A stretch of 62,624 bases of DNA, counting the filler. It is 7 parts of 7 records of this genome, joined end to end, with 100 filler letters (N's around TTAATTAATTAA, not from the genome) between each part and the next. Parts side by side here need not be neighbours in the genome. Positions count along the whole stretch, not along the records: positions 1 to 22,480 come from SRR9188676_2828; 6 more parts are not named here. One strand, 5' to 3'. Position 1 is the first letter of the stretch; the number at the start of each line of letters is the position of its first letter. The notes under the pieces are model-generated. The model made no database searches. It saw only the letters and a list, made by a program, of their open reading frames with translations, and was not told where the DNA came from. A program made the translations under genes and the position numbers. Shown here piece after piece: positions 397 through 53,072 of this stretch.

Positions 397-3300
397 TTAT
401 ACAAGCAGACCATAGTTGGCGAAGATGGTCATGAGGCTGGTGAAGGAGGTGACAATGTTGTCGAGCGCAGTGTCAACCTTGCCCAACTCAGTGTCGACAG
501 CGGCGAAGCTGGCCACACCGCTGCGAGAGTAGCTGTTGGTCATTGTGATTCGGTTCTGGCGGGCAACAGTGACACCGTCACCAGAGCGGAAGTCGGGCAC
601 ATCAGCGAAGGACACTGAGGTGGTGAAGGTAGCGGCACCAGAGAAGGTCGAGGGTACGGGCACGGAGATGGACTTGGTGCCAGTGGATACGAAGTTGATG
701 TAGCTGGTGGCAGCGCTGTCCTTGATGGTGAAGCCAGTGGCCAAACCGCTGGGGAAGGTCAGCACGTTGATGCCAGTGGTGGCAGTAGTGTACTGGATGT
801 TGTTCCTGTAGAGAAACAAGAAAGAACACACAAGAGAAGAGTGTGAGCAGGGGATTTTTGTTGTTGTGGTCATCAATCGAAGTCGAGAGATCATGAAGCA
901 AACGCAATCGAACAGTCGAGCAAGGGAGAATATGGATGGATACAAGATAATTCGTGTTGAGAATTCGGAGAGATCACTTACGAGGTAGTGCCAGACATAG
1001 TCAGAGTGCTGGTCGTGGTACCATCGATGGTCAGAGTGCTGGTGGTGGTGGTGCCGGTCAGGGTGAGGGCGGAGGTGGTACCAGAGATAGTGCCAGAGGC
1101 GCCAGCTCCGGTGCTGGAAACGGTCAGAGAGGTGGAGGCAGCCTGGTTGCCGATGATCACAGAGGTAGCAGTGCTGGACACGGAGTTGGCCATGGTGAGG
1201 CCGGAGCCAGAGGTGGAGGCGGTGACGGTGTAACCGGCAGGGGTAGCGCTCTGGTCCACGAGCTTCAGGACAACGTTGGAGCCAGTGCCCTTGCTGCGGA
1301 ACCACATGGAGGCAGCAATGTTGGCGGAGGTGCCGTCGGGGTAGAACTGGAGCTGGGGAGTGGCACCGGTGTCGGCTTGCATCACGTAGGCATCACTGTT
1401 CTGGTTGTCACTGTGAGAGATGAGAGCAAGAGAGAAAATGAGATATTACTCGGGTCTGAACGGATATGAAGAAGCAAATAACGACGGAACTGTGGATGCG
1501 ATCATAGATCAGCACCATGACCAGGAACTTATCAGAGTGATTCCGACACTTACAGGAAGCGGAGGTTGACTTGGGCAGCAGTGGGGGTGGCATCAGAGAC
1601 GGACACGAACTGGAACTCAGCGATACCAGCGGTGGCACCGCCATCCTGAGCCTGGAACTTAAGGGTCTTGGCCACGGGGGTGGTGGCGGTGAAACTGGAG
1701 ATGCGGAAACCGTCGTTGTTGCCGTCGAGCAGAGTGATGCGGTTCTCGCTGGTGCTCTCAGAGTACTGGATGGTCTCGGCAATGGCGTTGTTGCCGTTGT
1801 TGTGGTAGTAGATCTGAGTGGTCGGGGTGTCATCGGGGGTGTACACGGAGCGGATGTAGTCGGGGCTGGCATCATTATCCTGCGTATAGTTAGAAATAGA
1901 AAAGATAAGCTCATAATTACATACTGCTCGACTACTGCACAACTATCAATAATGAAGATAGATAATAATCAATGAAGTACGAGGTCAAGTGGCCATAATC
2001 AGAGGGGAGGAAGAACCAAGTGAGTGATCAAGATACAAGCACGGGAAAAGTTGCAAAGCAATGGACGTACAGTCATGGTGAGTGTGATGGTGTTGTCAGT
2101 GCCCTGGGACTTAAGGGTCATGTCGAAGGCCTGAGTGCTGTCAGAGCTGTCATAGGCCTCGAACACAACGTAGTCAGAGGCGCTGGGAGTCACGGTGAAC
2201 TTGTAGCCATCATCAGAGGCAGAATCACTGCAAACGGAGAAGCAGGAAAATGGCAATTGTAAGTCTCGGTCACAAGGCAAGAAATAGCAAGCAATGGTGA
2301 AGCCTAGCAGCGAAGTGGATGAGGACAAGAGAACTCCAACAAGGATGCAGGATGGAACAGAGTGACAAAACAAACACAAATCCACACACATACCGGAAGG
2401 TGATCTTGACGTTCTCAGCGCTGCTGTCGGAGAGCAGAGTGAGGTCGAAAGGAGCAGAGCCAGCAGAGTTCACGGCGGCAAAGGTAGCGGCAGGGGCGGT
2501 GGTGGTGGACACGGTCAGCTGGTAGCCGTCAGTGCCGGTGGAGTCCTCGAACTTGACGAGCACGTTCTGGTCAGTGCCCTTGGACTGCAGGCGCAAGTCA
2601 TAGGGGACACTGGTGGCAGGGGCAACGGTGCGGTGCTGGATGTAGGCAGAGTTCTGATCGGGGTGGACAATGGTGGTGTAACCATCATAGCCATCGGTCA
2701 GGGTGGAGGTGATCAGACCAAGAGGACCAGAGGTCAAGGTCATGGTCACATCGGTGACGGAGTTGGAGGAGGAGGCAGCGGTCAGGTCCAAGAGGGTGCG
2801 GGGTGACTTGTACACGGTGTCGGGCAAGTCGATGGTGATCACATCCTCGAGCTTGTCAGCATAACCCTTGCGGATGGAGACGGTGGTGGAGTCAGCGAAG
2901 GCAGCAACAAGGGCGCGGTTCAAGACAAGGGTGGTGACAGAGGCAGCAGTGCTGGTCTTGATGATCTTGTACACGGTGGAGTCACCGTTGAGCAAAATCT
3001 CATCGCCAACCTCAGTGAGGGGCTGGTAGATCTTGATGGATCCACCCTGCGTGAAGCCAGAGCTGACGGGTCGGTCCAAGTAGAGCACAGTCTTGGCAGT
3101 ACCGAACAGGTACGTGGAACCAACGGACACGATGGCATACTGGGTGGTGCCAGAGTCACCGGTCACGATATCACCAACAGTGAACTTGGAAGCATCGTTG
3201 GTGTTGGCAAGGCGCACACCATTACCGCCGCTGCTGATGTCGTAGTAGGGGTTGTAGGTACCAGCGGTCTGGGCGGCGGTCAAGCTCTTAGCACCGCAGG

Positions 3301-6300
3301 CAGCAGTACAGGTGAGATCCACATCGGAAACAGTCCAGGCAGTGTGGGTGGCAGAGGGAGCCTGGTAGACCACGATGGTGTACTTCTTACCGTTGGAGAT
3401 GGCAACAGAGGACACAGCCAGGTAGGAGTTGGAATAGGCAGAGATCAGAGTGCTGCGGACAGTAGAGTCAGAGGAAGTGTAGGCAATGGTGGTGGAAGCA
3501 CCGCCCCAAGTGAGCTGGAAGTTACCGCCGCTCAGGCCAGAGGTGGTGGCAGAGACAGAGATCTCGTACTCCTGGCCATTGATGGAGTTGGAGTCGACCA
3601 GAGTGTTGGGGGTAGCCCACACAGAGGAGATGGTGTCAGCGTTGAGCTTGATGGTCTTGGAGCCGATGGCATGAGGGCCACCAGTACCAACACCGTACTT
3701 CAAGGGGAAGTAGTCAAGAGCCTTGCGGAAGGACAGGGAAGAGCCAGAGTGAGCCATGGCGAACTTGCCGCTGCTGGAGTCGTCGAGCACCAAGGCAGCC
3801 TCGCTGGAGGAGCCAGAGGAAGCGATGGTCACACGGGCATCGGCATCAGAGCCAGAGCCCTGCACAACCACATCGGCGGTGGTGCCAGTCTGGGCAGTGC
3901 TGATGGTGTACTTGGCATAGTCGTCCTGAGTGAGCGCCTTCTGGGCAGTGGTGGCATCGGGGCCCACAGTCTGCATGTCAGTGTTCACGGTCACAGTGTA
4001 GCCGTCAACGCCGTCGGTCATGGCCAAGGCAACAGGGGAGTTGTAGCCAGCGGCAGTCAGAGTGGCGGTGGTGGAGGTACCGTATTCCTGAGAGGCAGCG
4101 GCGCCGTCAACAGCAGCGGCAGTCAAGGTCAGAAGAGCACCAGGGGCAGCCTGGGTGATGGAGTGAGGAATCTGGACAGAGACAGCGTTGGAGAAGTCAG
4201 AGCTTGCACCCTTGCGGACAAAGATGGCATCACCGACGGCGAAGTTCTCCAAGAGACCAGTCTCGAGGTAGATATCAGTGCTAGAGGCAGAGTAGACGCG
4301 GTAGATGTGGGAGCTGGAGCCAAGGGTGATCAAGTCACCAGCCTCGAGCGTGGGCTGCTGGAGCTTGATGAAGTTGCCGTCGGCGATGTCAGTGGGGTTG
4401 CGGTGGACAACCATGCACAGATCGTCATTGGAAGCATCATCACCAATCTCGCAGACATAGGAGTCATACAGAAGAGTGTAGTCGTTAGTGCCGGCAGTGC
4501 CGCGCACAATAGCGCCAGCCTGGAAGTACTTGGCCTGGGTGCCGGCATCGGTCAGAGCAAAGCGGTTGTCAGAGAGCGAGGCAATGGCCATGGCAGCGAA
4601 GGGAGTGTCAGCGCGGCCCTGAGTCACTGAGATGCTAGTGGTGATGTGCTTTTGGCCACGGGGGACAAGGGAGCCAGCACCGACGGCAACAATCTCGAGC
4701 CAGTTGTTCTGGTGGCGGATATCGAAGGAGGTGGCCTTGGGGGTGGAGCCCAAGTTGGTCAGCACAGTAGACATGGCACCGAAGTCAGCACCAGCAGCGC
4801 CCAAGTCATAGACAACAGCGGCTTCCTCAGCAGTGGAGGCGTCGTTATCGCCAGCGAGCACGGTCACGGTGGCACTGTTGGTGCCGGTGGCCTGGAAGGT
4901 GGTGTCGACGGCAGCAGAGGAGGCGATGGTCTGGCGAGGGTTGGGGGACTGGGTGGTGCGGCTAGGCACAACGATGTAGCCGAGGTTGGTGCCGTCGATC
5001 TGGCCAGCAGTGAAGGGCTGGCTGGGCATCTGCACAGAGATCTGAGTGGCAGAGATGTAGGTCACGGCAAGAGGAGAGGCAAAGTCGGCGGTGGCAGACT
5101 TGGCAGCAGAGTCAGCGATGGCAGTCTGGCCGACAAACTGGTACGAGCCCAGAGAGTCAGTGATGCCGTGAGCAGAGACAGTGGTGATGGTGGCAGTGAC
5201 ACCGTCGCCGGCAATCACGATGGAGAAGATGGGCACGCGGTCCTGGTTGACGTAGCTGCCAGGGGCACGCACGTCGGTGGTCACGGTGGTGGTGTAGCCG
5301 TTCATGTCAGTGGCATCGCGCATGGCAAGGGAGACAGTAGCATCAGTGGCAGACTGGATGCGCAAGTCAGCAGCGGCATTGTGAGCAGAGCTGGAGCCGT
5401 CCTGAGAGAACGCCTGCAGGGTCATCACGGGGGCATCCTGGGCAGTGGACACGGTGAAGGAGTAGCCATCAAGGCCGTCGCCCAAGTTCACTTGCACATT
5501 GCTGTTGGAGCCAGAGGTCAGAGAGGCGGTGGTGGTGGTGGCCTGAGAACCAGAGTTGCCGGCAGCGAGAGTCAACAAGGGGCGGTCAACAGCGTTGATA
5601 GTCTCGGAGGCAGTGATGCCAACGAGGCTGGTGAAGGAGCTGGCATAGCCCTTCTGCACGTGCACAGTCTTGGTAGCAGTCACATCGGCGACGGTAGCAA
5701 AGCGGCGGTCAAGAGTGACGGTGATCAAGTAGTGGCGGCCGTTGGCATTGTTGTTGACGGAGGTCTGGGTGTCGATGTAGGGGTAGGGGGTGGACACAGC
5801 GGTCACGGTGTAGACGTTGGAGGTCACGCCGTTGAAGTAGACCAAGTCACCAACCGCGAGAGTCGGGGTCTTGACAGCCCAATAGGCGCCCGTAGCGGTG
5901 GCAGCAGCAAGGTAGCGGTCAAGAGTGACAATGTTGCCAGACTTGGCGACCACAGTGTAGGTGGTGGAGATGGCAGCGACAGAGGCAATGGTGTCACCGA
6001 CATTGACATTGGTGGCATCAGCGAACTCGATCAGGTTGGACTGGTCAGAGGACTGCACGCGGTTGGCGACAGTGGAGAAGGCGAACCAGCCGTTGTTGAG
6101 CTGGTTGTAGTTGTTGGTCACGCGGATCTGCACAGTGTTGGTGTTGGCAGTGGCAGCAACATGCACGGGCTGGCCGGTCAGGAGGCGGAAAGGCATCTGG
6201 CGGCGGAGCTCGGCATAGCCGGAGCCACGGGCAACAGCAAGGTCGTTGGTGGCAGTGTTGCCATAGGTGCCCACATCCATAACGAGTTGGGCCTCGTGAG

Positions 6301-9300
6301 TGGTACCGGCGGTGACGCGCACGGTGGCATGCTCGTCGGCCTTGGCAGCGAAGGTAACATCCAACTTGCGGTTGGTGGCAGAGCCCTGAGGGGCAATGGT
6401 CAGCTTGGCAGTCTCCTGCGGGTTCTGGGCAGAGTCAGCACCATCGGAGGTGATGGTGTAGCCATCGAGGTCAGAGTCCTGGAGCACCAACACGGTGGAG
6501 CCAGAGTCAGTCTCCTTGCCCGCGGTGAAGGTCACAGTGGTGTCACGGTGGCCGTTGGTGGCAGTCACATCAGCAGTGCGGATGCGGGTACCGGCATCGG
6601 CGGCAACAGTCACGGTCACGGGGGCAACCTGGGTGGCAAGGGTGTTCTTGTTGGAGGCAGTGTTGGCGAAGTGAGTGAGAGTCTCGGGCACATCCACGCG
6701 CAGGGCGTTCTGGTGGTCGCGGGCAGCGGCCTTGCGGACGTACACGGCGGAACCAGCAACACCGGCAGTGCGCTGAGCAGTGATCATGGAGGCAGAGGCA
6801 CGGCCACCAGCGTTAGTGGTGGTGTACACAGTGCTGATGGAGGGCAGAGTAGCAGCGCTGGCGATGTTGCCAACGGGGCGGACAGCGGACAGAGCAACAG
6901 TCAGGGTAACGTAGCCATCACCGTCAGTGCTCTGAGCGGTAACCTGGATCACATCGGCGTTGAACTCGGAGGAGATGTCGGTGGAGCCATCGGAAGCAAG
7001 GATGGTAGCACCGCCAGAGATGTAGTAGTAGCCTGCAGTGAAGGTGGTGGTCACAGACTGGAGGTTCAGAGTCAGGCGGGCAGTGGAGCCACCAGCAAGC
7101 ACGGCAATGTCACGGATAGAAACATCCTGGGTGATGGCAAACTGGTTAGCAAGAGCACCGTTCACACCGTTGAAGGCGATTTCGTAGGTGTAGATGTTGT
7201 GGGTAGAGTCCACAGCAGCGCGGGAGACAGTGGCATAGTTGACGTTGGACAGGGCAGCAACGGAAGTCTGGAGGGAGGCAGCAGTCAAGCCAGAGCCGAC
7301 AGCGAGGGGCAGAGGGTTAGTGGTGGTGGTGATGGTGGTCACGACATCATTGACAGTGCCAGCGTTGTCGGGGTGGGTCATGGACAGAGTGAACACACCG
7401 CCAATGGTGGCAGTGGCAGTAGGGGCAGTGAAAGTCAAGTACTGGACTTCGACGACGCGGGAGACGGCATCGGCAACCAGGTTCTGGTCCAAGACCAACA
7501 AGTGGGAGTTGGAGTCAGTGGGATGAGTCTGGATCTCCTTGACCTTGTACACGATGAACTTGCAGGCACCAGAGACGCAAGAAGTGTCAACGTACTGGCC
7601 AACGATGAGGAGCTCATCGCCAACCTGCACCTGGTTCAAGGCAGAGCCGAGGTACTTGTCGACAGAGATCATGTTCTGGCCAGCCTTGTTGACGGAGGAG
7701 TCGATGGGGGCGGCAGAGACAGCAGAGTACTGGTTGCTGCGGAGCTGCTTGCGGATGGCAGTGGTGCCAGACTCGTGGACGAGGGAGGCATCACCAACTT
7801 CGCCAGAGGGAGCGCTGGAGGACTCGGCAACGTATTCAACATCGAAGGTGTTGACGGTGGCAGACAGGTGGTTGGCAGAGAGGGTCAGGGCAGAGGAACC
7901 AGCAGAGCCAGAGTCGATGGAGACCACAGAGTCAGCATCAGCCTGAGAGCGGACGTGCACCTCGGCGCGAGCGTTGGTGTAGTCGCTGATCGGGGAGATG
8001 GTCAGAGAAGAGCCAAAGACAGAGGAGCCAGAGTCGACGTTGTCAGAGGAGATGGAGTAACCATCAGTAGAGTCCTGGAGGTTGACGGTGACGGCACCAG
8101 ACTGGTAGAGGTTATCAGTGGAGCCGAGGTTTCCGGCCTTCAGGGTCACGACGGTATCGAGGTGCTCATAGGTGGAGGGGGTGGCAGCGACGGCGTTGGC
8201 ACCAATCAGGCGAGCAGTGCCAGCAGCAGTAAGTTCGATGGTCACAGCGGTAGCGATGTCAGTGGTGGACTCGTCGATGGAGACCTTGACCGGGTTAGCC
8301 CAGCCAGCACCAGTGTGGTCAGCCTTCTTGACATACAGCAAGTCGTCGTGTACCAGGTAGGTGTCGGAGAGCTCGATGTTGCGGTCAAGCTTGATGTAGT
8401 TGGCAGCAACGGCGACAACGCTGTAGAAGGTGGAGGTGAAGCTACCGAGGTAGACCTCATCGCCAACCTGGATGTAGTTAGCGCCAGTGCCAGCGGGGCT
8501 GTTGGACAGGTACAGCATGTTAGTGTCGATCTTGGCACCAAGGCCAGCGGCAGTGTCATCGCCAGAGTGCTGCTTGACGTAGATCTTGAGGTCAGCGGGG
8601 ATGTCGACGCTGTTGAAGTCAGCACAGAAGATCTTCTGCTGGTCAACCACGCCGTCACTGTTGGAGTCATAGTTGGTCACAGCGCTCACAACACGGTCAG
8701 CACCGTACACATTGAAGCCCTTCTTGACGAAGACCTTGGCGCTGGAAGTATGAACTTCCTCCAAGGCACGGTGGAGAGTCAGGATCTTGCCGCTGATGGC
8801 AGTGACAACGTAGTCGATGGAGGTAGGGGCAGCACCAGTACCGAAAGCAACGAAATCGCCAACAGCGATGTTGGTGATCTCACCGAGGGAGGCGGAACCA
8901 TCGGGGGTCTTGTCGACCTGGAGCTGGACACGGTAGTCACCACGGCCGTTAATGCCGCTAGCAGCGAAGGCAGAGCCAGCCTGGTCCAGGGTGGTACCAC
9001 TGTCGGTGTACTGGTAGGCAGCGATGCGGACCTTGTCACCGGGGCGGACCAGCTGGGCAAGGCGAGCGTCGGTCTGGACAGAGTCAGAAGAGGAGGTACC
9101 GATGGTGGTAACGTCCTGGGAGATGGAGATCAGCAGGAAGGCAGTAACACCGCCAGAGATGGTAGCCTGAGAGCCAGTGACAGTGATGGCACCAGTGTCC
9201 ACATAGGGGCGGACGCGAGGAGCCTTAGACAGAGTGATGGAGGCACCGCGAGTAACGGTGGCTTCCAAGTTGCGGTTCAGGGTCAAAACAACGTAGCCGT

Positions 9301-12300
9301 TGACAGAGTCCAAGGAGTTGGAGGTGGAGGAGACGGCAGTGACACGGTAGGTGTTGGCACCGATGGTGATGTCATCGCCAGCCTGGACAAGGAGGGACGC
9401 ATCCTGCTCGAAGACGGAGAAGTTGGGGTCGTTGGTGGCAAGGCCAGAGACAGTGATGTAGCCGAGGTTGGTGGCTGTGGGGGTGGTGCCACAGGTGGTG
9501 GCGAAGGTGATAGTGGTACCAGTGACACCGGTGAGGGTGACGTAGCCATCAGCATAGCAGGCGTTGGAGGAGCCAACGATGCTCTTGATGTAGTACTGGT
9601 TGCCGCTAGACAGGGAGTGAGTGCGGTCGAGGGTGGCGGTGGCAGAGGCGCCAGCGACAGAGATAGCGGTGACCTGGTAGAACTGGGCAATGGTGGCCTT
9701 GACCTTGTTCTGGCCAGCCTGGTTGTAGCCATTGCTGGCAACGAGGTAACCGAAAGAACCACCAGTGGCAACAGAGCAGGAGCCAGCGGCACCGTTGGTG
9801 GTCAGAGTGAAGGACACGGTGGTGCTAGACTGAGAGACACCAACAGAGAAGACGCCGTTCAAGTCAAAGAAGACACTGTCGGAGCTCTTGACGAGGCTGG
9901 AGCCCACAATGGAGATAGAGGTCAAGCCAGCGGGAGGCAGGTTGTTCAGGGTCACGGTCACGGTGGTGCCAGAGATGGACACAGCCTTGATGGTGTTGTA
10001 GTCGGCATAGTACACGCTCATCTTGGAGGCAGAGGTGGAGGTGGAGCGCACCTGCTGGTAGTTGTACTGCTTCTCGATGTCGAAGTGGCCAGCCTGAGCA
10101 GTGAGGGCATAGTCGCCAGAGGCAGCATTGCGGGCAGAGCCCACATCGAGGATCAAGCCAGATTCCATGCCGGTGCCAGAGGTCACCTTCAAGGAGGCAG
10201 CAGCAGTGTTCAAGGCAGAGACAGTCACCTGAGTGGCGATGTTGTCAGAGGAGGCGCCGAGGGCAGAGATGGTCAGAGTCGGGGTGTCCAAGTTGTCAGA
10301 GGTGATGGAGAAACCATCGTTCTGGTTGTCCTGGAGCTTCAAAGTGGTCACACCCTGGGCACCGGTGTTGGCGGCATCCAGGGCAGCAGTCTCCTTGGCG
10401 ACGAAGGCGGCAGTGGTGTGTGTGTGCCAGTAGGCGGCGTTCTGGTCGGGACCGATGGTGCGGGTACCATCATCGCTGCCAGTGGTGAGGGTCAAGAGAG
10501 AGGACGGGTCCACAGTCTTGTCGTCAACATTCACGTTGATCAGGTCAGAGAAGGCAGAGAGAGTGCGGGTCTCAGCGCTGCGGGCACCAGTGGAGGCGTC
10601 GTAGCGAGAGTGCACAAAGATCTGGTCACCAGCATACACAGTGTAGTCCAAATCGGCAGTCAGGGTGACACCGTCAGTCTCGACGAGCGCAACGGTGGCA
10701 AACATTTCATTCCAGGGGGCGGAGGCAGCACCAGAGTCACCAGCGGAGATCAAGGCACCGACACCCTGGTAGTTGGTGTTATCGCGGCGCACGAGGCGGA
10801 TGTGATCACCAGGGAAGAGCTTGGTGGTCCAGTCGGGGGTGGCGATCTTGGCAACGCCAGAGGCAGCAGTGGTGGAGCTAGTGAGGTCGCCGACGAACTG
10901 CCAGGCCTGCTTGCGGAAGGCGAGGTTGTCCTGGGTGTGCACGAGGGCATAGTCACCATGGACATCGTTCAAGGTGCGGGCAGTGTCATCATACATGTCG
11001 TTGGACAGGATCATGGCGGCTTCGTAGTTGCCAGTGGAGGCAGCGTTACCGGAGCGGATTGTGACAGCAGCATCGGCTTCACCACCAGAGGTGATGGTCA
11101 CGGAGGCGGCTTCGCTGGAGGTGAGGCCACGAGCAGCAAGAGTGAGCTGAGAGTTGGCAACAGTGCCAGCAAGGTCGGCAGTGGACATGGTCAGGTCGAA
11201 GAACTGGGCACCATCACCAACAGTCACAGTGAAGGACTGGTCAGCGGGGGCCAAGAACGAGGCGCGGTCGGTCTCGAAGCGAGTCAGGGTGTGCATGTTG
11301 TCCTGGGAGTTCAGCGACTTGACAATGTAGAAGGTGTCGCCATCGGCAACGGCAGCGGTCAAAGGAGCGTGATCGATTTGCAGAGCGTTGGTCAGGGAGT
11401 AGATCGGGGCCATGTAGGAGCCATACTGGATGTAGTCACCGTTGGCGATGTAGCCGAAGGAGCCAGTGGTGGGGTTCAAGTTGCCAGTGGCATAGGAAGT
11501 GCCATCAGCCTTGGTCAAGACGATCTCGACCTGAGAGTCAGAGCAAACACCATCGCTGGTGGTAGAGCCCAACTGGCAGTCAATGCCGGTGTAGACAGTG
11601 AAAGCACCGGTGGCAAGGTTGGACACAGCAACGCCAGCAGAGTCTTGGACATTGAAGGCGTTGGCAATCCAGTATTCACGGCGGCTGACCAAGTTGTGCT
11701 TGCTAGAGAGCACAAGCTGGGCACGAGAGCCAGAGACAGTGATGGTGGAGATGTCGAGGCGACCAGCATCCACGAGCACGATGGTACCGAAGGAGGTGGC
11801 AGCGGCGGCAGAGCCCGCAGTGAAAGAGCCAGAAAGCTGGATCTGGAACTGGGAGGGAGAGCAGTAGGAAGAGCAGGAAGCACCAGTGGCAACGGTGTGG
11901 CGGCCGTTGAAGATGGAGTCGAGAGACTTGGCGCCAGCATCGGTCACGCTGGAGGCGTCCGCGATCTCGTACTTGGCACCATTGATCAGGTTGTGGCGAG
12001 AGACAAGGTTGACGGTGGCAAGGCCAGAGGAAGTCAGAGTCATGCTCAAGATATCGACAGCGAAGCCGCCAGCGATGGTCTCGAAGGCATGGCCAAAGGA
12101 GGTGGTGCCAGTGGCAAGGAAAGCCAAGTTGGCAACACCAGCAACAGAGGCGGGGAGAGACACGTCCACAGTGGTGCCAGTGACACCGGTGATCTCGTAG
12201 AATCCGTTAAGGTCTACAGCGACACCAGCGTTGGTCTTGGCGCCGTGAGCGTTGGCAATCTGGATGTAGCTGCCAGAGGCGAAGCTGTGAGTGGAAGCGA

Positions 12301-15300
12301 AGGTCAGGCGGATGGAGGCACCACCGAGGTGAGTGACGCCAGAGATGGCCATCATGCCGTCGCGGACGAGAGCGATGGGGGTCATGGAGCCCAAGTTGCT
12401 GGAGGTGGAAGTGATAGCACCGTTGTTGACGGTCACGGGCAGGGTGAAGGTGGCAGTGGTGGAGGTCACAGAGGTCAGCTCGTAGAAGCCATCGATGGAA
12501 CCGCCATTGACGGAGGCATCAGCAGAGTCCTCGAGACCAAGGGTACCGACAACAGCGTAGTCGTCACCAGCAACAAAGCCGTGGGCAAAGCTGAAGGTCA
12601 CGGTGGCAACATTGCCAGAGGCAACAGAGATGCTAGAGAAGGGCTGCACGACACCGCGGTAGCTGGTGGGCACGAAAGTGCGGGTAGTGGTGGAAGTGCG
12701 AGTCACCTGGCTGTCCTCATGGAAAGTCATGCGGACTTGCTTGCGAGTCTCGAGGCTGGAGCCAGTCTTGCGGATGGCAAAGTCGTCGTTGGTGTTGGTG
12801 GCAGTGTCAGAGAACTGCAGGGTGATGTCCTGGCTGGCACCAGAGTTCAAGTTCAGCGAGGCAGTGGTAGCAGCATCGTCACCGAGAGTCAGGGATGCGC
12901 TCTTGCCAGCGGCGCCACCAATCACAACTTCGGAGTTGGCAGTGCTCTGGACAGAGAAGATGGTGCGGCCGGCATCGAGGGTACCGAAGGAGGTGGTGGT
13001 AGTAGCAGCACCGGTGGCGGGAGAAGTGGACAGAGTGAACTCGAACTGAGAAGTGGAGCAAGTAGCGGTCAAGCAGGACTTGCCAGTGCGCACAGTGTGA
13101 GCAGCGTTCAACTTGGAGTCGATGGAAGCAAGAGCAGTGTCCTTGGTGCCAGAGCTACCAGAGATAGTGTAGGCAGCACCGTCAACAAGGTTGTGGGCAG
13201 CAGAGGTAGTGGCGAGCACGATACCGTTGGCAGAGATAGTGTAGCCGGAGATGGTCAGAGTGGCGGAGTAGTGAGAGTCAGCAGTGAGAACAGTGCCCTT
13301 GCCGGCCTGATCGTTCAGGGTCAGGTAGGTGTTGGTGTTGGTGGCAGAGCGGACCTCGACGTAGGCAGGGGTGTCACTGCCGTCGCCCTTGAGCAACACA
13401 TTCACACCATTGGTGGACTGCAGAGTGAGAGAGGGATCCTCAACACCGTCAGTGGTCATGGTGTAGCCCTGGTAGGTGCTGTCTTCCACAGAGGCAAGGC
13501 GCAGAGAGGCAGAGCTGCCCAAGTTGGAGTTGATGTGCACAGCAGTGGTGGTATGCACGTTGCTAGAGGACTGGGCGGCAGTCAGGTCGAGGATGGGGGT
13601 GTTGAAGGCACGCACATCGTTGTCGACATTGAAGCGGGTCACGGGGGTGAACACTTCGTCGTAGTTGGTGACGTAGGGCTCCCAGATCTCGATGTCAGAG
13701 CCGTCGACGAGCGAGCCGGAGTTGGAGCCGGTGTTAACAGCCAAGTTGGCAACCAGGTAGATGTTGGAGTTGGAGATGTAGTCGATTTCCTGGATGATCC
13801 AGTTGGTGCCATCGCTGTCGCGCACACGCACGTACACACCATCGGGGAAGTTGGTGGAAGTGCAGGGGGCATTGCTGCTGGACACAACGCAGGAGCTGAT
13901 CTGAGCCTGGGAGGCCATGCGGATGATCTTCTGGCCGTTCTTGTTCTCGTCGTTGAGGCGGTTGACGTTGTCGACAGTGGACAGCTTGTACCACATCTGG
14001 CGGCGGAGCTCGAAGCTGCCATCAGTGCCGGCACCACGGACGTTAGCCCAGGCGCCATCCATGTTGTTGTCGTTAAGGAAAACGGTGGCGGATTCCTTAG
14101 TGCGGTCGGCGGTGACGTGCACACCAGCACCCATGCCAGCCAAGTCAGTCAGGGTCATGCGAGCCACATCCTCAGAGAGGATCTGGGTACGGGCAGCATT
14201 CACTTGGTCAAACTGGGCACCTTCGGTACCGCTGACAAAGTGCACAAGGTTGTAGAAAGTGGTCTCGGGGATGACAGTGAAGTTGTCGGGGGTGGCATAG
14301 GCCACAGTGGTGCCACCAGGAGCAAGGGACACGCGGCCAGCGACGTCAGAGACGGAGCCACCGGCACCAGAGGCGAGGATCAAGTCACCGCCATTGTAGC
14401 CAGAGCGACCCTGCTGACCGGAGATGGTGGTAGCCAAACCAGTGGAGGAGGCGTGCTGAGGGCGGGACAGAGTGAAAGCAGCGTCGGTGTTACCCAACAC
14501 AACGGCATCGGACTTGATGTTGGAGAGGGTCAAGTCAGTGGTGGACACGGCAGAGGTGGCAGCGAAAGTGGTGGCAGAGACGGTGCCGCCAGCAGCGATG
14601 TTGGAGGTGGCAGAGAAAGAGGCAGCAGAGGCAGCGCCAGTCATCTGCAGAGTGGCACCCTTCACGAGAGGAGCATTCACGTAGCCGGTGGAATCCAAGT
14701 TGGTCACATCGGCCTGAGTGATCTGGGCGTTGGTGCTGGTGAAGGTGGTGGAGCTCAGGGAGGCAGCAACAGTGGCAGAGCCGAGGATCTCCAAGTTGGA
14801 GGCGGCGTTCAGGGTCAGCTTGTTGGAGGAGTCAGCAAGAGTCAGGGTGTTGTCGCCAGACTGGAGCAAGACGCTTCCGCTAGCACCAGTGCCAGTGTTA
14901 AGTCCACCAATGATCTGCACGCCACCGCCATTAAGGTTGCCGAGGGCAGCCTGCTGGCCACGGAGGATGGTGTTGGCACCAGTGGCACCAACGGTAGCCT
15001 GCTGGGGTCGCACGATAGTGAAGTCAGTGGTGCCGCCGAGAGTCAGGGAGTTGCTCACAGTGATACCAGTGGAGGACAGAGTGCCGGTAGTGATACCGTT
15101 GGTGACAGTGAGGGAGTCAGAGGTCAAGCCGTTGGCAACAGTGGTGCCAGTGGAGTCGATGGTGACCTTGGGGCCAGCGGAGCCGACACCAGATTGGAGA
15201 ACCACAGCACCAGCAACACCGCCATTGGCAGCGGCACCAGCAGAGATTTGCACATTACCACCGTTCAAGGCAGCGGCAGCGCCAGAGTTGGCATTCTGAC

Positions 15301-18300
15301 CGGAGATGGTGGTGGTGGAGCCAGAGAGGGTGGCCATGGGGCGAGCAATGCTGGAGGCATAGACAGTGCCAGCAACAGTCAAGTCGGAGCTGAAGGTACC
15401 GACCTGGCCGTTGAAGGTAGTGGCAGTCAAAGTGGACACACCAGCGGTGGTCAGAGTGGCAGTGGTGGAGGTCAGGGTGTTGACAGTACCGGTAGTGATG
15501 GTGGCACTAGGGGAGCTGAGGGCAGAGGTGGCAGAGAGAGTGGGAGCAGACACGGAGGTGGCAGAAGTCACGGAGGCAGAGGCAGCCAAAGTGGCGACGG
15601 AGGCAGAGGTGGCAGAGAAAGTGGTGGACTGCAGAGTAGCAGCGGCAACAGTGCTACCGAAGGTGGCAGTGGTACCACGGAGGGTGGTCACGGTACCATC
15701 GGTGATAGTGGCAGTAGCAGCAGTAAGCGAGGTGGTGGCAGCAATGGTGGCAGCGGTGGCGCTAGTGGCAGTCACAGAGCCAGAGGCCAAGTTGGTGAAG
15801 GTACCGGTGGTGGAGGAGAAAGTGGTGGCAGCGAGCACGGGGGCAGTCACAAGGTTGGAAGCCACAGTGAGCTCGTTGTTACCAGCAGACAGAATCACCT
15901 TACCGTTGGCGCCGACGGGAGTAGACCTGGTCAAACCAGCCTTGATCACAACATCACCACCATCCTTGGAGGTGCTGGGGTGAGCATAGGAATCCTGACC
16001 GGTGATGTACAAGTCGTTACCATCACTGCTAGAGTGAGAGGGGCGGGAGACGGTGAAGTCGAAGGAAGAGGAGCCGAGCTGCATACCAGCGAGCACATTG
16101 ACGGTGTTGGCAAAAGTAGACTGACCACCGACAGTGACAGCGCTACCGAAGGTGGAAGCACCAGCAACAGCCATGGTGCTAGTAGCAGTCACAGCACCAT
16201 CAACGTTCAGGGCAGAGGTCACATGGCCAGTGCTGGCGACGGTCAAACCACCATTGATGTTCAAGGTGTTACCGACGAGGGCGGTGGTGGCGGCGCTACC
16301 GATAGTGGGAGCGGTCACGGAGGTGGAGGCAGCAAGGGTGGAAGTGCTGAGGGCGGTGGTGGTCAGAGCAGAGGAAGAGATGGTGGAAGACTGGATGGAG
16401 GTGATCAGACCGAGAGGGCTGGTCACGCTGGTGGTACCAGAGAGAGTGGTGAACACAGCAGTGGTAGAGTTGACATAGTCGAAGTAACCGTTGGTAGAGT
16501 CGACATAGGTGGCATCGATATTGGTGGCGGTGACCTTGGTCAGGGAGGCGGCAGGAGAGGAGAAAGTGGCAGCAGTGACTTGGCCAGAGAAGGTGGCAGT
16601 GGGGGCAGTGACAGCACCGTCCACATCAACAGCGAACTTCTTGGTAGCATCAGTGGAGCCAGTGACGGACAGAGTCTCAGAGGCAAGAGACTTACCGAAC
16701 ACGCGGCCGGCAGTGGCGGTGATGTTGCCAGTGCTCACAAACACACCATTGGTGGCATTGACAGTGCCAGATCGCACAAGCACGGAGCCAGTGGTGAGAT
16801 CAACATTGCCGGTGGAAACAACCATGTTGCCAGTGGAGATGGTGGCAGAGTCGGCAGTCACAGACTTGAGGGTGGTGGAGCCGGTAGTGGTCAGGGTAGT
16901 GAAGGTACCGGTAGAAGCGGTGAGAGCACCATCAGAAGCAACAGCCAAAGAGCCGATCGCAAGGGAGCCAGCAGAGAGGGCACCAGAGACAGCAGCAGAG
17001 GTAGAGCTGAAAGTGGAGGCAGAGAGAGCGCCAGTGACACCCACAGTGTGAGTGCCAGCATTGACCTTGAAGAACTGGTCAGAGCCAACGTTGATGGCGC
17101 CACCGACGTTCAAGGTGGTGGACACGTTGTGGGCAGCGTTGGAGAGAGCATAGCCAGAGGCAACCTGGAACACGTTCTGGCCACCGACACGGAAGTTCTG
17201 GGTGTCTTGGCTCTTGACAACGTCGTAGTAGACGGAGCCATCGTTGGAGTACGAGTTCGAGTTGAAGCTGGTAGCAGTGGCGTTGCCGGTGACAGTGATG
17301 GGGGCAAGGAATTGCACAGAGGAGGAGGACACAACGATCTTGGAGGTGTCAGTGGTGGTGCTAGTGCCAACAGCGATGCGGATGCTCTTGGAGCCATCAG
17401 TGGTTTCCAAGCGCATGTCAGAGACAGTGGTCACCTTGGGGGTGGTCACGGAGGTGGTGGCGGTGGCAGTGGTGAGAGCGGCAGTGGGGGCAATGAGCGC
17501 AGTGTCAGAGGACACGGTACCCTTGACAATGAGAGTCTTGGAGTTAGTGTCGAGAGTGAAGTTGCCGGAGCTGACGATGGAGGTGGCCAGGATGTCATCA
17601 GTGACAGTCAGGTCGTTGGTGACGGTCATGGTGGCAGCGGTCACAGTGTCGGCAGTGATGTCGTTCTCGACCACAAGGTCGCTAGCAGTCAGGTCGGTCA
17701 CGGTGGCATCAGGGATGGAAACAGTGCTACCAGTGGCAGCCTTGACAACAAGGTTGCCTGCATGATAGGGAGGAGAGAGATAAAGGAAGAAGTCAGAATG
17801 AATCAAGAAAGAAAAAATCAGAAAAGGAACGGGTCAATCCAGTTTTAGACACGGTTCTAACATGACGCAGCCAGATAAAGAAAGGGATTGCAGAACAGGT
17901 GAAAATAGTTGAACAATGATGAGAAGAGAAGTTAAAACGCACCAGAGGCGGATTGCACAACGGGCACAGTAACCTGAGCACCGACAACCAAGTCAGAGTC
18001 GATGTTAGCGGTATCAGCGGTCAACTCCCCAGAGGCAACGAGGGTTTCGGCAGTGAGCTTGTTGTCAACATTGACAGCGGAAGCAAGCACGCTGATGGTG
18101 TTGGAGCCTGCATAAGATAGAGAAGCAACAGAAGAATGAGACGGGTGCCATGCGACAATAATTTGGAATCGGGCGGAACAGGACAGGATGGCGAGGGAGG
18201 AGAATCATCAAACGAGGTGCAAAAAAGCGAGAATGAACATGAAGATAGTAAGAGTAGACATACCATCAGAGCCAGCCTGGATGGTGAGAGTGGAGGCAGA

Positions 18301-20834
18301 CTGGACCACGGGAGAGGTCACAGAGTTGCGGAAAGTACCAGCAGTGAAGTCACCGGTACCGGTAGTGAGGCTGGAGGAAACAAGTTTGCCTACATTCACT
18401 TGGTTGGCGGTAATCGAGACGTCTTGAGTACCTGTGACATTCAAAAACAGGAGCAGGGAGAGAGAACAATGAGCATGCACGGCTGGCGAACAGAATGGGG
18501 AGGTTCAACCTGGTCAACCTGGTACGAATGGAACATTGGAAATGCAAAAGAAGAAACAATGAACATGAAGAGACTGGGAATGAGCAATGCGCCCACCGGA
18601 ATCCGAGGAGCAAAAGCAACAACGGAAGCAGGAGTAACGCTTACCGTCAGAACCGGCGCGGATGGCGAGGGCCTCGGGAGAGGTGATACTGCGGACGAGC
18701 ACAGTGTCAGACGAGGTGGAGTTCACAGAGAGGGTGGTGGCAGACAAAGACTTGATGGAGCCAGAGGGAGAGCTGATGCTGGGAAGGAAGGCAGTGGCGG
18801 CCTCAACAGTCAAGGACTGAGTGCCGTCGCCAGCGCGGAGAGTCAGGGTCTTGCCAGAGGCAGACTTGACAATGTCAGAGGTTAAAGTCTCGGCGGTCAC
18901 AGACTCAGCGTTGGCAGTGCCGAGAGAGACAGAGGTGGCATCGGTCAGGTCCAAAGAACCAGTCACGGCAACGCTACCAGCGAGGTTGAGGGTATCAGTG
19001 GCTGAAGTTAGAAAGAAAAGGGGGAAATGAGATTAGAATGAGCGAGGTGCGGTGACCAGAGTGGATTAGAGGGAAGAGGGCGCGTTTTCACGTTGGGAGA
19101 ATGCAAACAAACATAAAATGATCAGAATGAAAGCAACTTTACCTTGGATCTTGATGCTACCAGCAGAGTTGATGGCAGTGGTAGAGAGAGCACCAGCGGT
19201 GAAGGAAGTGGCCTGGGCGGAGGTGAAGGTGGCAGCGGCAGCAGTAAGAGAGTCGGACACAACAACCTCACCAGTAAGGGTCAGGGTGTCAGTGGCTGCA
19301 TTGCAAGAGAGGAGGCAAGTGAATATCAACACAGAAAAAAGGAGAAAAGGTCGATAAACAAATACAAGATCAAGCCAACTTCTGAAACTTACGTTGGATC
19401 TTGATGCTGCCAGCAGAGTTGATGGCAGTAGTGGTCAGAGTACCAGCGGTAAGAGCGGAAGCTTGAGCGGAGGTGAAGGTAGCAGAGGCGGCGTTAAGAG
19501 AACCAGTGACGGAGACAGCTCCGGTCATGGCGATCGCATCGGTTTCTGGAAAAGGAGGGACGAAAGAGGGATATATAAGTAAGAATCTAGAGGGTAAAGC
19601 CGCTGCAAGTATCGGAAATGAAAGCAGGTGCTCACAAGATGCAGGAGCAAGGATGAGAAACAGAGGGGGGAAACGTCGAAGGAGGAATTATTAAGAGAAA
19701 GAAGACATACGGGAACCGGCGCGGATAGAAAGAGCACCAGTAGAACCAATGAGACCAGTGGTGACATTGGTGCTAGCCTTCATAACATCGAAAGAAGCAG
19801 AGGAACCAGAGGAACCAAGCAAGTTGGCATCCACAAGGACCTCGCGCTTCGATGACAGAGTCAAGGTATCTGAAAGGGATTAAAATCAATGAAGAAATGG
19901 CGATTGAAGAAAATCAGAAAGGAGTCGAGTCAACCAGAATGGACGCGGCAAACTAGCAAGAGATGAAGAGGGAAAGACAAGAAAACAGCTAAGACACTTA
20001 CTTCCGGTAGTAGAAAGAGTGGGAGAGCTCACAGCTGTGGCAGTCACGGTACCAGTGACAGAGAGCGCTGCGATGGAGGAAGATGGAATTTACAAATGAG
20101 TTTCCTACGAATTAGCGCGCCAATTTGAAAATGGAGGCAACTTACGGGAGGCCACAGTGACAGAGCTGCCAGTGGACTGCAAGAGCAGCTGCCCTTCGGC
20201 AGTCAGTTGCAAGTCGGCAGATGAAGAGAGCTCGAGAGTGTTACTCGAAGACAGCTGGAGGGCCTCGCTCGAAGAGATAGAGAGAGTGCCTTCGGAGTTA
20301 GAAAGGCTGTCTGTTGACACAGAGGGCACTTGCATTTCCTTCTCAGTGGAAGTTACAAGAGTACCCTTAACAGTGAGATCGCCATTGACAGTCACTGACT
20401 GGATGAAAGTGGAGGCACCAGTGACGGACATGGTCTCAGAGACAATAAGAGTCTCGGCTGCCATGCTTGTTACAGTGACTGACTCGGTACTGAAGATAGC
20501 GTCAGTAGAATCGATCTCGATCTGCCCAGTAGAGAACGTTAGTGGTAAGAAAAGTTGATTGTAAGGATTATTGATATACCAATTTAGATCCTGAATGAAG
20601 GAGCTGGAAGGCACCGTCTTTTTGGATGGTCAGTGAGTATTCATCGCTATCAGTCTTAAGATCAATGGTGGCGGTGTCAGTGCCTTCGATGGTGAGAGAA
20701 TCACCCAGATTCGGAAGTTGGGTAACAGCAAAAATTGCGAGAATGAACGCAACAATAATGAACATCCATGAGATAACGGTGTTCACAACGAATCCACTAT
20801 AGGAAACGGTCCGTGGAGCTGAGCGGACGTCCAT
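397..20834 (-). CDS. Giant (~6,178 aa) 14-exon Ser/Thr/Ala-rich surface protein with N-terminal TM anchor and phage-fibre-like repeats
   Basis: Hand-spliced exons: 20834-20580, 20521-20146, 20067-20002, 19869-19711, 19545-19393, 19295-19143, 19001-18645, 18431-18264, 18107-17943, 17757-2394, 2227-2071, 1879-1554, 1410-982, 805-397. All introns are GT..AG with compatible phases. Total 18,537 nt, ATG to TAA. Exon 1 has a hydrophobic segment (VISWMFIIVAFILAIFAV). Confidence 0.88.
19143..19545 (-). repeat. Tandemly duplicated 153-nt phase 1-1 exons (exons 5 and 6 of the giant gene)
   Basis: Exons 19393-19545 and 19143-19295 have equal length and both encode ..ATFTSAQA...TAG.L.TTAINSAGSIKIQ. Confidence 0.85.
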
Positions 20835-34148: not shown

Positions 34149-34248
34149 NNNNNNNNNNNNNNNNNNNNNNNNNNNNNNNNNNNNNNNNNNNNTTAATTAA
34201 TTAANNNNNNNNNNNNNNNNNNNNNNNNNNNNNNNNNNNNNNNNNNNN
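34149..34248. other. Artificial contig spacer
   Basis: Same N/TTAATTAATTAA/N block. Confidence 0.97.
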
Positions 34249-37500: not shown

Positions 37501-38730
37501 AGGCTGGGCATTCCTCCACTAGGCGTTGGCAAGATCCATCCGCGCATTTCACGGGTCGTTCGGCAGGGCACACATGGCCACGAGGGCAGTCGGACAATGC
37601 ACCTCGGCACTCGCCCGTGGGGCATCGCAACGGCGCCGAGCTTGGGCAAGTGTACACAGCCTGAGGGCATGTACCCACACTGTATGCGCAGGAACCGTCC
37701 CAGCATTTCACGGGTCGTTCTCTCGGGCAAGTGATTTGCGTCGGGCACTGAGAGGACAAACCAGCAAGACCACAGGAACCATCCGGGCAGCGAGAGAACT
37801 CGGCGCTGCTGGACAGACCTTTACACGGCGCAGTGGTGAAAAGCGGGCATTCATACACGCTTGAGCGGCAAGATCCGTCCCAGCACTTCACATTGCGGTC
37901 AGCAGGGCAAGTCATGCCAGTGGGGCACTTGAAGGGATGATCCACGCACAGGCCACCAGGGCATCGGTATTGGTCAGTGCTGCAGTAGTCATACCCCAAG
38001 CGAGGAGCGCTGAGCTTGCAGTAGATGGCAGATGGGACACAGGAGCCGTCAGGGCAGAGCACAAAGGAGACAGGGCAAGTGGTGGCCGTGGGGCAGTCTT
38101 GGATGCTGTGACGGCATGAGCCATCAGGGCATGTGACGTTCATATCGGAGTCTGAGCAGCGAAGTGGAGCGGGACCACTCACAGGGCACTCATGCGCAGT
38201 GGCACGACAACTCATGTCGGAGCATGCCACCCATCCAGAGGGGCATGTGACCTGAGTCGGACAAGACTCTGGGCTGTCGACACAAGCACCCGAAGCGCAG
38301 AGTACAGGGCGCGAGGACGGGCACTCGGCCGAGTCGGACACCACAGGCGGGCAGTCATCCAAGTTGAACACGCACGAGCGGCCATCATTGCATAGATAGT
38401 GACCAGGCGGGCATGCGATGGGCGTGGGGCAGTCCGAAGTGGCCAAACGGCAAACGTTGAAGTAAGGACACAAGGTTTGACCACCTTGACATTGCACAAA
38501 GTCCACAGGGAAGCAGAAATCGGAGCAGTGACCATCACCACATCGTGTGAGACCCGAACCTGCGGGGCAAGGACATTCGGTCATGGAACTCAAGCAAGTC
38601 TCGGACTCTGTGCAATAGTATGGCTTTGACACGGGGCACTTGAGCAAGTCATCGTCATTGCCCCAGCTTGCATAGCACGAGCCATTGGGGTATCGGTAAG
38701 GCTTGTTCAAGTCTGTGCAAGTGATGGGTT
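34523..38730 (-). repeat. Cys-rich protein repeat array, CP-x3/4-P-x-[RK]C-x-DG-[ST]C-x5/6-CP
   Basis: Dozens of ~25-aa units such as CPRERPVKCWDGSCAYSVGTCP and CPAERPVKCADGSCQRLVEECP, spread over three exons. Confidence 0.9.
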
Positions 38731-45840: not shown

Positions 45841-45940
45841 NNNNNNNNNNNNNNNNNNNNNNNNNNNNNNNNNNNNNNNNNNNNTTAATTAATTAANNNN
45901 NNNNNNNNNNNNNNNNNNNNNNNNNNNNNNNNNNNNNNNN
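45841..45940. other. Artificial contig spacer
   Basis: Same N/TTAATTAATTAA/N block. Confidence 0.97.
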
Positions 45941-51555: not shown

Positions 51556-51556
51556 G

Positions 51557-52807: not shown

Positions 52808-52825
52808 TTTGCGTGATATAGAAAG

Positions 52826-52852
52826 ACCCCGCAGGCCATTGGCTTGCGGGGT
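52826..52852. terminator. Stem-loop, probable intrinsic terminator
   Basis: ACCCCGCAGGCC-ATT-GGCTTGCGGGGT, 18 nt after the RTX stop codon. Confidence 0.7.
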
Positions 52853-52893
52853 TCTGTGTTCATATTGCTATGGTAAGGTTGTTATACTGACAT

Positions 52894-52908
52894 TGGTTGC
52901 GGGAGCCG
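52894..52908 (-). other. Candidate att site: copy of a tRNA-Met 3' end
   Basis: TGGTTGCGGGAGCCG reverse-complements to ..CTCCCGCAACCA, a tRNA-fMet-like acceptor end. The rest of a tRNA is absent. Confidence 0.5.
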
Positions 52909-53072
52909 AGTTCCACCGCTGTAGAACTCGGTTCCGGCTGACAGATCATCATGTCGTGTCCCTTTTGGATCCGTGTAACTCTACTCGTGGCGTATCACCA
53001 TTGCTGCGCTAAACGATTGCTCAAGCAGAAAATAAATCACTGCTTTATCCAGTAGGCACGAAATATAAAAAA

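Follow-up and report, generated by a model that had tools for sequence, protein, structure and literature searches.

A 6,178-residue signal-anchored protein of Rhodelphis limneticus as a candidate trimeric fibre with phage-like parts

The DNA analysed here, which we refer to as the window, is a stretch of 62,624 nucleotides joined from seven parts of seven records of one genome, with 100 filler letters between each part and the next. Its left third (positions 1 to 22,480 come from SRR9188676_2828) carries a single very large gene on the minus strand, from 20834 to 397, which we call the fibre gene after the shape that we propose for its product. The gene has 14 exons separated by 13 introns, all of them GT-AG, and when joined the exons give one open frame of 6,178 residues, with a coding sequence (CDS) of 18,537 nt whose sole stop is at its end. 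The model was built by hand from the letters and then verified by a script that joined the exons. In a word-index search of 5.8 billion proteins, 6,178 of 6,178 residues of the spliced model matched a protein derived from a Trinity transcript of Rhodelphis limneticus (EukProt EP00735), and this identity with an independent RNA-derived protein establishes both splicing and expression as a single gene. The fibre gene is real and expressed. A first-pass annotation of the same DNA had described a complete 14-exon gene of about 6,180 residues at 397-20834, which is exact, and had allowed that transcripts might show several separate genes, which is answered by one transcript-derived protein spanning all 14 exons. 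The introns are 58-213 nt long with a GC fraction of 0.36-0.49, against 0.59 for the CDS. Relative synonymous codon usage agrees closely with that of two neighbouring filamin-repeat genes described below (r 0.96 and 0.83) and poorly with that of a bacterial segment elsewhere in the window (0.30). The locus is a native nuclear gene of R. limneticus. In the left third of the window the plus strand is strongly skewed toward purines and G, and each strand contains long open frames. A 4,405-residue open reading frame (ORF) on the plus strand was rejected as an antisense shadow, being rich in G, S and D, in contrast to the minus-strand frame, which is varied, T/S/A/V/G-rich and contains aromatic residues. 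The hand-built model is as follows.

20834..397, minus strand: whole gene, ATG at 20834 and TAA at 399-397, spliced product equal to the transcript-derived protein
20834-20580, 20521-20146, 20067-20002, 19869-19711, 19545-19393, minus strand: exons 1-5
19295-19143, 19001-18645, 18431-18264, 18107-17943, 17757-2394, minus strand: exons 6-10
2227-2071, 1879-1554, 1410-982, 805-397, minus strand: exons 11-14

We note that a single exon accounts for 15.4 kb of the gene, unlike the small exons that carry repeats. The encoded protein is acidic, with a net charge of -207, and contains 18 cysteines in total, 14 of them in seven close pairs. It can be divided from N- to C-terminus into the following parts.

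20712..20780, minus strand: signal-anchor (transmembrane) helix, residues ~19-41, behind an 18-residue N-terminal stub, placed by hydropathy and flank charges
14210..20509, minus strand: S/T/A-rich repeat region, residues ~90-1800, exons 2-10 with introns included, placed by composition and exon phases
2396..14014, minus strand: eight divergent supermodules of 280-780 residues each, residues ~1866-5738, placed by internal phmmer matches and alignment
12971..13276, minus strand: barrel insert 1, residues 2112-2213
12377..12664, minus strand: barrel insert 2, residues 2316-2411
12080..12370, minus strand: barrel insert 3, residues 2414-2510
11774..12079, minus strand: barrel insert 4, residues 2511-2612, the copy that was modelled
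11441..11776, minus strand: barrel insert 5, residues 2612-2723
9737..10015, minus strand: barrel insert 6, residues 3199-3291
9449..9694, minus strand: barrel insert 7, residues 3306-3387
4967..5254, minus strand: barrel insert 8, residues 4786-4881
1257..2701, minus strand: C-terminal DGY array, residues 5637-5951, end of exon 10 and exons 11-13 with introns included, placed by profile units
397..805, minus strand: exon 14, C-terminal region, residues 6043-6178 and stop, equivalent in position to the phage-type module of the Rhodelphis marinus relative and diverged from it
400..522, minus strand: terminal amphipathic helix with a heptad core, last 41 residues, ending ...IFANYGLLV

One segment alone is strongly hydrophobic: the Kyte-Doolittle average over 19 residues reaches its maximum of 2.75 at residues 20-38, and the runner-up in the whole protein is 1.62. 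In the following S/T/A-rich region (residues 90-1800) these three residues make up 47% of the sequence. This region is not mucin-like, as proline amounts to merely 1.7-1.9%, the repeats are degenerate and V, L and I are frequent. Exons 4-9 encode one unit of 51-56 residues apiece, exon 7 being double, and are bounded by phase-1 introns. Identity within the region peaks at a lag of 51 residues, with a value of 0.218, and exon size follows the repeat unit, with exons 5 and 6 measuring 153 nt each. Exons 3-10 (window 17943-20067, plus the start of exon 10 at 17757) start in phase 1 throughout, and the repeats therefore grew by exon duplication. Two leads to a beta-solenoid fold fell short of their thresholds, one to FapA (E 0.026, 14.5 bits against a cut-off of 31) and one to a Bactofilin/PelX_Ig cluster in the ESM Atlas (0.88, with Bactofilin on 15% of its members, under the lead threshold of 0.9). 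Within the same region, residues 1190-1760 (window ~14330-16040, minus strand) contain four spaced units of the form F.[FL].[VS]RP....(I/L).GQ......GG.V.I..G......G.V.L..G, which presumably resemble the Gly-rich rungs of beta-helical adhesins.

The central supermodules share a boundary motif, F.IRKQ, and a conserved C-terminal half; each holds a pair of small GD.I...Y.V units, the string LLTLTA, a DGY unit and GDYAL...F.IRKQ. They find each other in phmmer searches with E 1e-5 to 1e-17, at identities of 18-28% in their alignment. Inserted within them are eight copies of a domain of ~100 residues. The DGY unit, of ~50 residues, was found in 11 copies by an iterated profile hidden Markov model (HMM), six of them inside supermodules and five in the terminal tandem array, which shows hydrophobic periodicity at lags of 13, 26 and 51. 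The helix at the C-terminus is amphipathic, and its heptad core is hydrophobic. A glycosylphosphatidylinositol signal at the C-terminus was dismissed, as the tail of the R. marinus relative is not hydrophobic. The single N-terminal transmembrane helix, the S/T/A repeats, the inserted small domains (eight copies of ~100 residues, confidently folded by AlphaFold2), the recurring DGY modules and the helical C-terminal cap that the first-pass annotation had listed are thus all present, as is the hydropathy and flank charge expected of the type II anchoring that it proposed.

Close relatives of this protein are extremely few. An exhaustive HMMER search of 1.84 billion representatives with residues 4540-5738 returned two proteins, itself and a 716-residue protein of R. 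marinus (EukProt EP00736 P011198), which is probably the 3' part of an orthologue. Residues 6-328 of the latter match residues 5639-5976 of the fibre protein with an independent E-value of 1.6e-37 and 37% identity, this being the best-conserved part, and the last 200 residues of the two proteins are colinear (score 90 against 57+-9 for shuffles, reached by 1 of 500). Word-index searches gave nothing but the fibre protein itself for residues 1792-5738 (candidates of 2,852-9,078 residues), and nothing at E<=10 beyond itself for the R. marinus C-terminus (candidates of 393-1,253 residues). ESM Atlas best scores of 0.79 for residues 4540-5738 and 0.89 for residues 619-1800 were both under the lead threshold. 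As judged from these sequence searches, the family is known from the genus Rhodelphis alone among the 1.84 billion representatives searched with residues 4540-5738.

It is the C-terminus of the R. marinus relative that links this family to phages. This protein ends in LGFFGATPV, 57 further residues and NLGLTN, with the octapeptide GFFGATPV at residue 651 of 716. A tblastn search of phage genomes with its last 111 residues gave matches at E 2-6 only, which were used as leads and not as evidence. Both leads were the C-termini of proteins encoded in virion regions: gp4 of Gordonia phage Yikes, which is annotated as a tail spike protein and adjoins a tail fibre gene, and gp28 of Dorito, which is placed after minor tail genes. 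Yikes gp4 ends in ...IGFFGATPVARQ...LVNLGLIS before its stop, and Dorito gp28 in ...LGFFGATAVTKP...LKALGLIA. At its C-terminus, Yikes gp4 matches the corresponding end of phrog_29706, a tail spike protein. A DNA pattern for GFFGATPV was found in at least 120 viral contigs of IMG/VR, and among the matches listed the motif stands 30-95 residues ahead of the stop in 107 of 117 complete in-frame viral ORFs, further upstream in nine and closer in one; [LYMF]G[LIVMF] falls within the last 12 residues in 105 of these 107 module ORFs, in 70 of which the product is small, as against 36 in which the module closes a long protein. In summary, the module has ...K[ILV]GFFGATPV.Q..., then a variable stretch of 20-80 residues, and finally a helix that ends in LGL plus 1-5 residues. 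It stands alone in proteins of ~80-120 residues and terminates others that are long and fibre- or tailspike-like. One P22-like contig encodes the small form directly after its portal, scaffold and coat genes. The same pattern in prokaryotic genomes gave at least 120 loci, with 20 module-like cases among the 109 complete ORFs in the matches listed, counts that are comparable with the viral ones as proportions only. No curated family covers this phage module, and a text search of the literature did not find the string GFFGATPV.

Against an HMM built solely from 68 phage sequences, the R. marinus relative reached 42.6 bits (single-sequence P 3e-15). The octapeptide is exact at 8 of 8 positions, and the six-residue ending NLGLTN is the same as that of one viral ORF (L087). 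Our own calculation from typical residue frequencies puts the chance of an exact 8-mer at ~1e-10 per position, and we therefore accept the R. marinus module as homologous to that of phages. The link of the R. limneticus protein to the phage module runs through this relative, and we have not classed it as a member. At the position of the octapeptide, MAFFT places YINFVS..SVPV or TFSGAATF in the R. limneticus protein, whose C-terminus keeps the amphipathic helix and an end of the [LYMF]G[LIVMF] type (...TIFANYGLLV). On this evidence the C-terminal module is probably of phage ancestry, the R. limneticus copy by way of its relative.

The same module suggests how chains may associate. Three copies of the C-terminal 111 residues of the R. 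marinus protein were predicted to form a complex with an interaction prediction score from aligned errors (ipSAE) of 0.95 in 3 of 3 runs, against 0.02 for the best control, with a predicted local distance difference test (pLDDT) of 94 and contacts agreeing to at least 96%; this score, whose mark was reached by 21 of 30 solved homo-pairs and 0 of 23 solved single chains (17 of 29 and 0 of 30 for eukaryotes), was calibrated on two copies, not three, and comes from a single-sequence model in which the alignment was unused, which counts against the prediction. The closest contacts between chains join residues 86-86, 90-90, 93-93 and 100-100, that is, the same or neighbouring residues at a spacing of 3-4, and this implies a parallel, in-register three-helix core. 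The module profile is without a sequence relative in the PDB, which makes recall of a solved complex less likely. The 10 positions of the R. limneticus protein that correspond to the predicted R. marinus trimer core hold hydrophobic residues without exception (V, L, V, L, I, F, L, F, Y, L). We consider a trimeric fibre nucleated by the C-terminus to be somewhat favoured.

The orientation of the protein is suggested by both ends of its anchor and by its glycosylation sites. The N-terminal flank of the helix carries two K/R and one D/E, and the 25 residues after it one K/R and seven D/E; together with the single strong helix, these charges fit an N-in/C-out signal anchor under the positive-inside rule. 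Only 10 N-x-S/T sequons are present where 500 local block shuffles give 78.5+-6.7, an eightfold depletion; two of them lie beyond residue 1100 and just one beyond residue 1800. Control motifs are not depleted (S/T-x-N 84 against 78.6, N-x-x-S/T 90 against 80, D-x-S/T 110 against 94). In the R. marinus relative, where 8.0+-2.4 would be expected, there are no sequons at all, and the two giant neighbouring filamin-repeat genes show no such loss. Oligosaccharyltransferase works solely in the lumen of the endoplasmic reticulum (ER), and the loss of sequons therefore points to a translocated ectodomain in which N-glycans were selected against; the closely paired cysteines likewise argue for lumenal exposure. 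The depletion would be consistent with a tightly packed lumenal or extracellular structure. It is thus likely that the protein is of type II with its ectodomain outside the cell.

The inserted domains provide a second, structural likeness to phage proteins. Barrel copy 4, modelled by AlphaFold2 with the eight-copy alignment, reached a pLDDT of 88.6 and a predicted template-modelling score (pTM) of 0.81. Its best match among 48,161 PDB representatives is the barrel of the phage phi92 endosialidase (Z 8.7, root-mean-square deviation 2.2 A over 82 residues, 20% identity), by a small margin, as a best Z of 7-8 is typical of unmatched models. The next matches are the FCCH domain of UBA1 (Z 7.8 and 7.6) and the barrels of FNR-type flavin adenine dinucleotide (FAD) domains (Z ~6). 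The modelled barrel is six-stranded and superposes on residues 255-337 of 4hiz and 214-294 of UBA1. In PHROGs, phrog_9998 was matched by 3 of the 8 copies (best E 0.0047) and the tail-fibre family phrog_12796 at E 0.051. Sequence searches with the barrel were blank in Pfam and in tblastn against phages, a PDB profile search gave a best E of 0.11, and the best candidate of 197-2,000 residues in the search of 5.8 billion proteins was a JGI hypothetical protein at E 2.2. The inserts share their fold with a barrel common in predicted phage fibre and baseplate proteins, which does not imply common descent. The endosialidase barrel of endoNF binds glycans. We also observed that the iterated barrel HMM drew in residues 2483-2584 of the filamin-repeat ORF at window 23355-34196 (minus strand); the E of 1e-22 for this stretch is inflated, since the stretch was already inside the model, and the match may reflect either drift of the profile toward Ig-like strands or a shared domain.

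From these elements we propose the following explanation. The 6,178-residue protein would be of type II, with an 18-residue cytosolic stub, a signal anchor and ~6,130 residues that enter the ER lumen and then stand outside the cell. This ectodomain would be acidic, nearly free of cysteine, all-beta and fibrous, and would consist of the S/T/A-rich shaft, eight supermodules with eight lectin-like barrels, the DGY array and the distal C-terminal module. Three chains, held in the membrane by their N-termini, would register through the C-terminal module, its beta part and a parallel three-helix coiled coil, and would then fold from that point back in the direction of the membrane, giving a single long fibre in the manner of phage fibres. 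N-glycosylation sites would have been purged because glycans would hinder packing of the fibre. The C-terminal module, and probably the barrel inserts too, would derive from phage virion proteins, would have been gained before the two Rhodelphis species split, and would since have adapted to host codons and been interrupted by introns. From the rise per residue usual in beta solenoids, strings of Ig-like domains and triple beta-spirals, we estimate that one molecule might span ~0.15-0.5 micrometre. The fibre may be a surface or flagellar filament, either hairs of the posterior flagellum or an adhesive filament for prey glycans. This suggestion of function draws on the predatory habit of Rhodelphis, on reported simple hairs and on the glycan binding of the endosialidase barrel, and a role as flagellar hair or prey-adhesion filament is put forward only tentatively. 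Thin simple hairs on the posterior flagellum are described for other Rhodelphis species in a passage of one published account (PMC12495952).

Further giant minus-strand ORFs at 23355-34196, 36884-44614 and 44583-45884 (3,613, 2,576 and 433 residues), amounting to two or three genes, encode Filamin/ABP280 repeats and GEX2 N-terminal immunoglobulin (Ig)-like domains with E 1e-70 to 1e-86. These repeats and domains mark the stretch, all on one strand, as a cluster of giant surface-type genes, none of the ORFs being related in sequence to the fibre gene. Further on, ~8.5 kb of 62% GC at window 51556-60039 is 100% identical, in two pieces, to one contig (C34) of a bacterial genome of 5.1 Mb, which carries ~1.9 kb extra between the two pieces. 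This segment encodes an RTX/haemolysin-type Ca-binding protein, a WYL-WCX regulator and a DUF2779/Cas4-like protein, and low-GC eukaryote-like sequence lies on both sides of it. Either the assembly is chimeric at this point, with DNA of a culture bacterium joined in, or the segment was inserted very recently.

A number of results weigh against an anchored trimeric fibre with phage-derived parts, and several of them would be expected if the protein were instead a monomeric, lineage-specific giant adhesin or glycocalyx protein of eukaryotic origin, an anchored string of small beta domains and S/T/A spacers whose phage likeness would come from widespread small folds and from a short motif that arose by chance or convergence. 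About 90% of the fibre protein is without a detectable relative beyond Rhodelphis. When the octapeptide is masked, the R. marinus relative scores a marginal 4.6 bits against the phage-only HMM, reached by 9 of 1000 shuffles, and the phage link therefore rests largely on the octapeptide, its position and the terminal LGL. The R. limneticus protein is without GFFGATPV and scores 3.7 bits against the same HMM (P 0.004, reached by 12 of 1000 shuffles); hhalign aligns only its last 17 residues (P 0.012, with an alignment probability of 3.6%), and no match at E<=10 came from tblastn of exon 14 against 50,697 phage records. When 40 long phage carriers of the module were searched with supermodule, barrel and DGY-unit profiles, nothing scored better than E 0.003, and phmmer returned no hits. 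The barrel fold is found in UBA1, FNR-type and other cellular proteins too, and PDB Foldseek matched it only at E 0.05-0.15; the top barrel rows in BFVD are phage baseplate J-like, short tail fibre, tail and fibre proteins (query-based template-modelling score, TMq, 0.58-0.69, E ~1e-3), but BFVD holds viral proteins only and matches there cannot show virus specificity. The trimer prediction belongs to the R. marinus C-terminus, and trimerisation in R. limneticus is suggested by analogy with it. AlphaFold2 modelled supermodule 7, from an eight-row internal-repeat alignment, at a pLDDT of 41, too low to bear out a fibre shape; DSSP assigns almost nothing but strand within this low-confidence model, unlike a mucin. 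Searches of Pfam, PHROGs and NCBIfam with the large exon, exons 13-14 and the R. marinus relative gave no match above threshold, and PDB sequence searches with single sequences and profiles gave none that was significant; in PHROGs there were 0 families for residues 593-3192 and for exons 13 and 14, and only phrog_82 (head closure, E 0.028) for the remainder. No curated tail-fibre or tailspike model matches the body of the protein in PHROGs or in tblastn against phages, and the R. marinus relative and a five-barrel stretch found no match in tblastn against phages. The first-pass annotation had suggested a phage-like, perhaps domesticated viral fibre; the barrel fold and the R. marinus module speak for this suggestion, and the lack of any significant match to Pfam, PHROGs, NCBIfam, the PDB or phages by tblastn speaks against it, so that the sequence comparison with PHROGs and the PDB came out negative for the fibre protein as a whole. 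The neighbours of the gene, giant Ig- and filamin-repeat proteins of the ordinary beads-on-a-string surface type, would also suit a monomeric adhesin. If the protein were of this kind, one would not expect the R. marinus relative to match GFFGATPV at all 8 of 8 residues, where phages typically have it, and then to run through a helix to an NLGLTN end. Nor would one expect a confident trimer prediction for that relative with a heptad core conserved in R. limneticus. The strong purge of sequons is unseen in the neighbouring beads-on-a-string genes, and the low proline sets the S/T/A region apart from mucins. We regard the monomeric adhesin as unlikely on balance, yet as deserving serious attention.

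It may also be asked whether the product stays in the membrane and whether the gene belongs to the host. A secreted or stored structural protein, with the N-terminal helix cleaved as a long signal peptide and the rest released as detached hairs, matrix or content of an extrusive organelle, would suit a hydrophobic segment at the extreme N-terminus that is followed by small residues (...AIFAVTQ), and sequon depletion and cysteine pairs suit any secretory cargo. However, the hydrophobic core is ~23 residues long behind an 18-residue stub, which is typical of signal anchors and not of cleaved signal peptides, and we consider release improbable. The 100% identity of window 51556-60039 to a bacterial genome shows that foreign or chimeric sequence is present in the window, and as such an origin of the fibre gene from an integrated or contaminating virus or bacterium had to be considered. 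Against this stand the thirteen spliceosomal GT-AG introns, the identical eukaryotic transcript protein, a codon usage that correlates at r 0.96 with a eukaryotic neighbour and at r 0.30 with the bacterial segment, and the absence of any match to the fibre gene in the bacterial genome that matches the window segment. A non-host origin is extremely improbable, and the introns and the transcript refute it for practical purposes. The anchored trimeric fibre with phage-derived parts, serving as a surface or flagellar filament, is the explanation that we prefer, and taken as a whole we judge it about evenly poised between right and wrong. Its most far-reaching form, in which a predator domesticated phage virion parts and expanded them by exon and module duplication into a trimeric anchored fibre for hairs or prey-capture filaments, is speculative and rather doubtful.

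Long beta-rich trimeric fibres and giant surface proteins of protists are already known in kind. What is new here is an intron-bearing eukaryotic gene for a putative type II-anchored fibre of 6,178 residues, in a family that appears to carry a phage trimerisation module and barrels of phage-fibre type; a literature search on phage-derived tail fibres and horizontal gene transfer in protists, judged by title and abstract, found no such eukaryotic protein. The cell-surface molecules of Rhodelphis, the phagotrophic lineage that is sister to red algae, are almost unstudied, and the gene offers a concrete, testable candidate for the hairs on its flagella or the filaments by which it adheres to prey. 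If the proposed history is true, it would represent phage-to-eukaryote transfer of a structural, not an enzymatic, virion protein into a component of a cell-surface organelle, and if the phage ancestry holds, a rare eukaryotic surface structure from a virion module would have been scaled up by duplication of exon-sized repeats. Two by-products of this work may be of wider use: a widespread uncurated C-terminal module of phages, predicted with high confidence to trimerise, and the sequon purge, a simple sequence signature that might flag other tightly packed extracellular fibres.

Comparison with known systems places these features in perspective. Mastigoneme proteins of protists, such as Chlamydomonas MST1 and the mastigoneme proteins of stramenopiles, are large, secreted or anchored glycoproteins that form thin flagellar filaments. 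They would resemble the fibre protein in candidate cellular role only, and differ from it in that Pfam revealed no domains in common and in that its 18 cysteines make it unlike the epidermal growth factor (EGF) type. The barrels of phage endosialidases (phi92, 4hiz; K1F endoNF, 3gvk) and the FCCH domain of UBA1 share the predicted fold of the eight ~100-residue inserts, in contrast to their sequences, which show no significant similarity, and glycan binding by the inserts would be an analogy only. The R. marinus relative is alike in its DGY array (10 units against 11 in R. limneticus), its colinear C-terminus, its end of the form [ST]IF[AS]N[LY]GL and its loss of sequons; unlike the R. limneticus protein, in which both are lost, it retains GFFGATPV and the NLGLTN end, within the 716 residues known. 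The GFFGATPV module of phages has in common with the R. limneticus protein its site at the extreme C-terminus, an amphipathic heptad helix and an end in [LY]GL plus 1-5 residues, and R. marinus has the whole module, whereas the R. limneticus protein is without the octapeptide, belongs to a eukaryotic host, is encoded with introns and is otherwise unrelated to the phage carriers. Unlike phage tail fibres and tailspikes, the R. limneticus protein has an N-terminal transmembrane anchor in place of a virion-binding domain, is 5-10 times longer and is matched by no tail-fibre family of Pfam or PHROGs. What it would share with them, by analogy, is a long shaft rich in beta structure, inserts of small barrels, a trimerisation module at the distal C-terminus and, likely, the mode of assembly.

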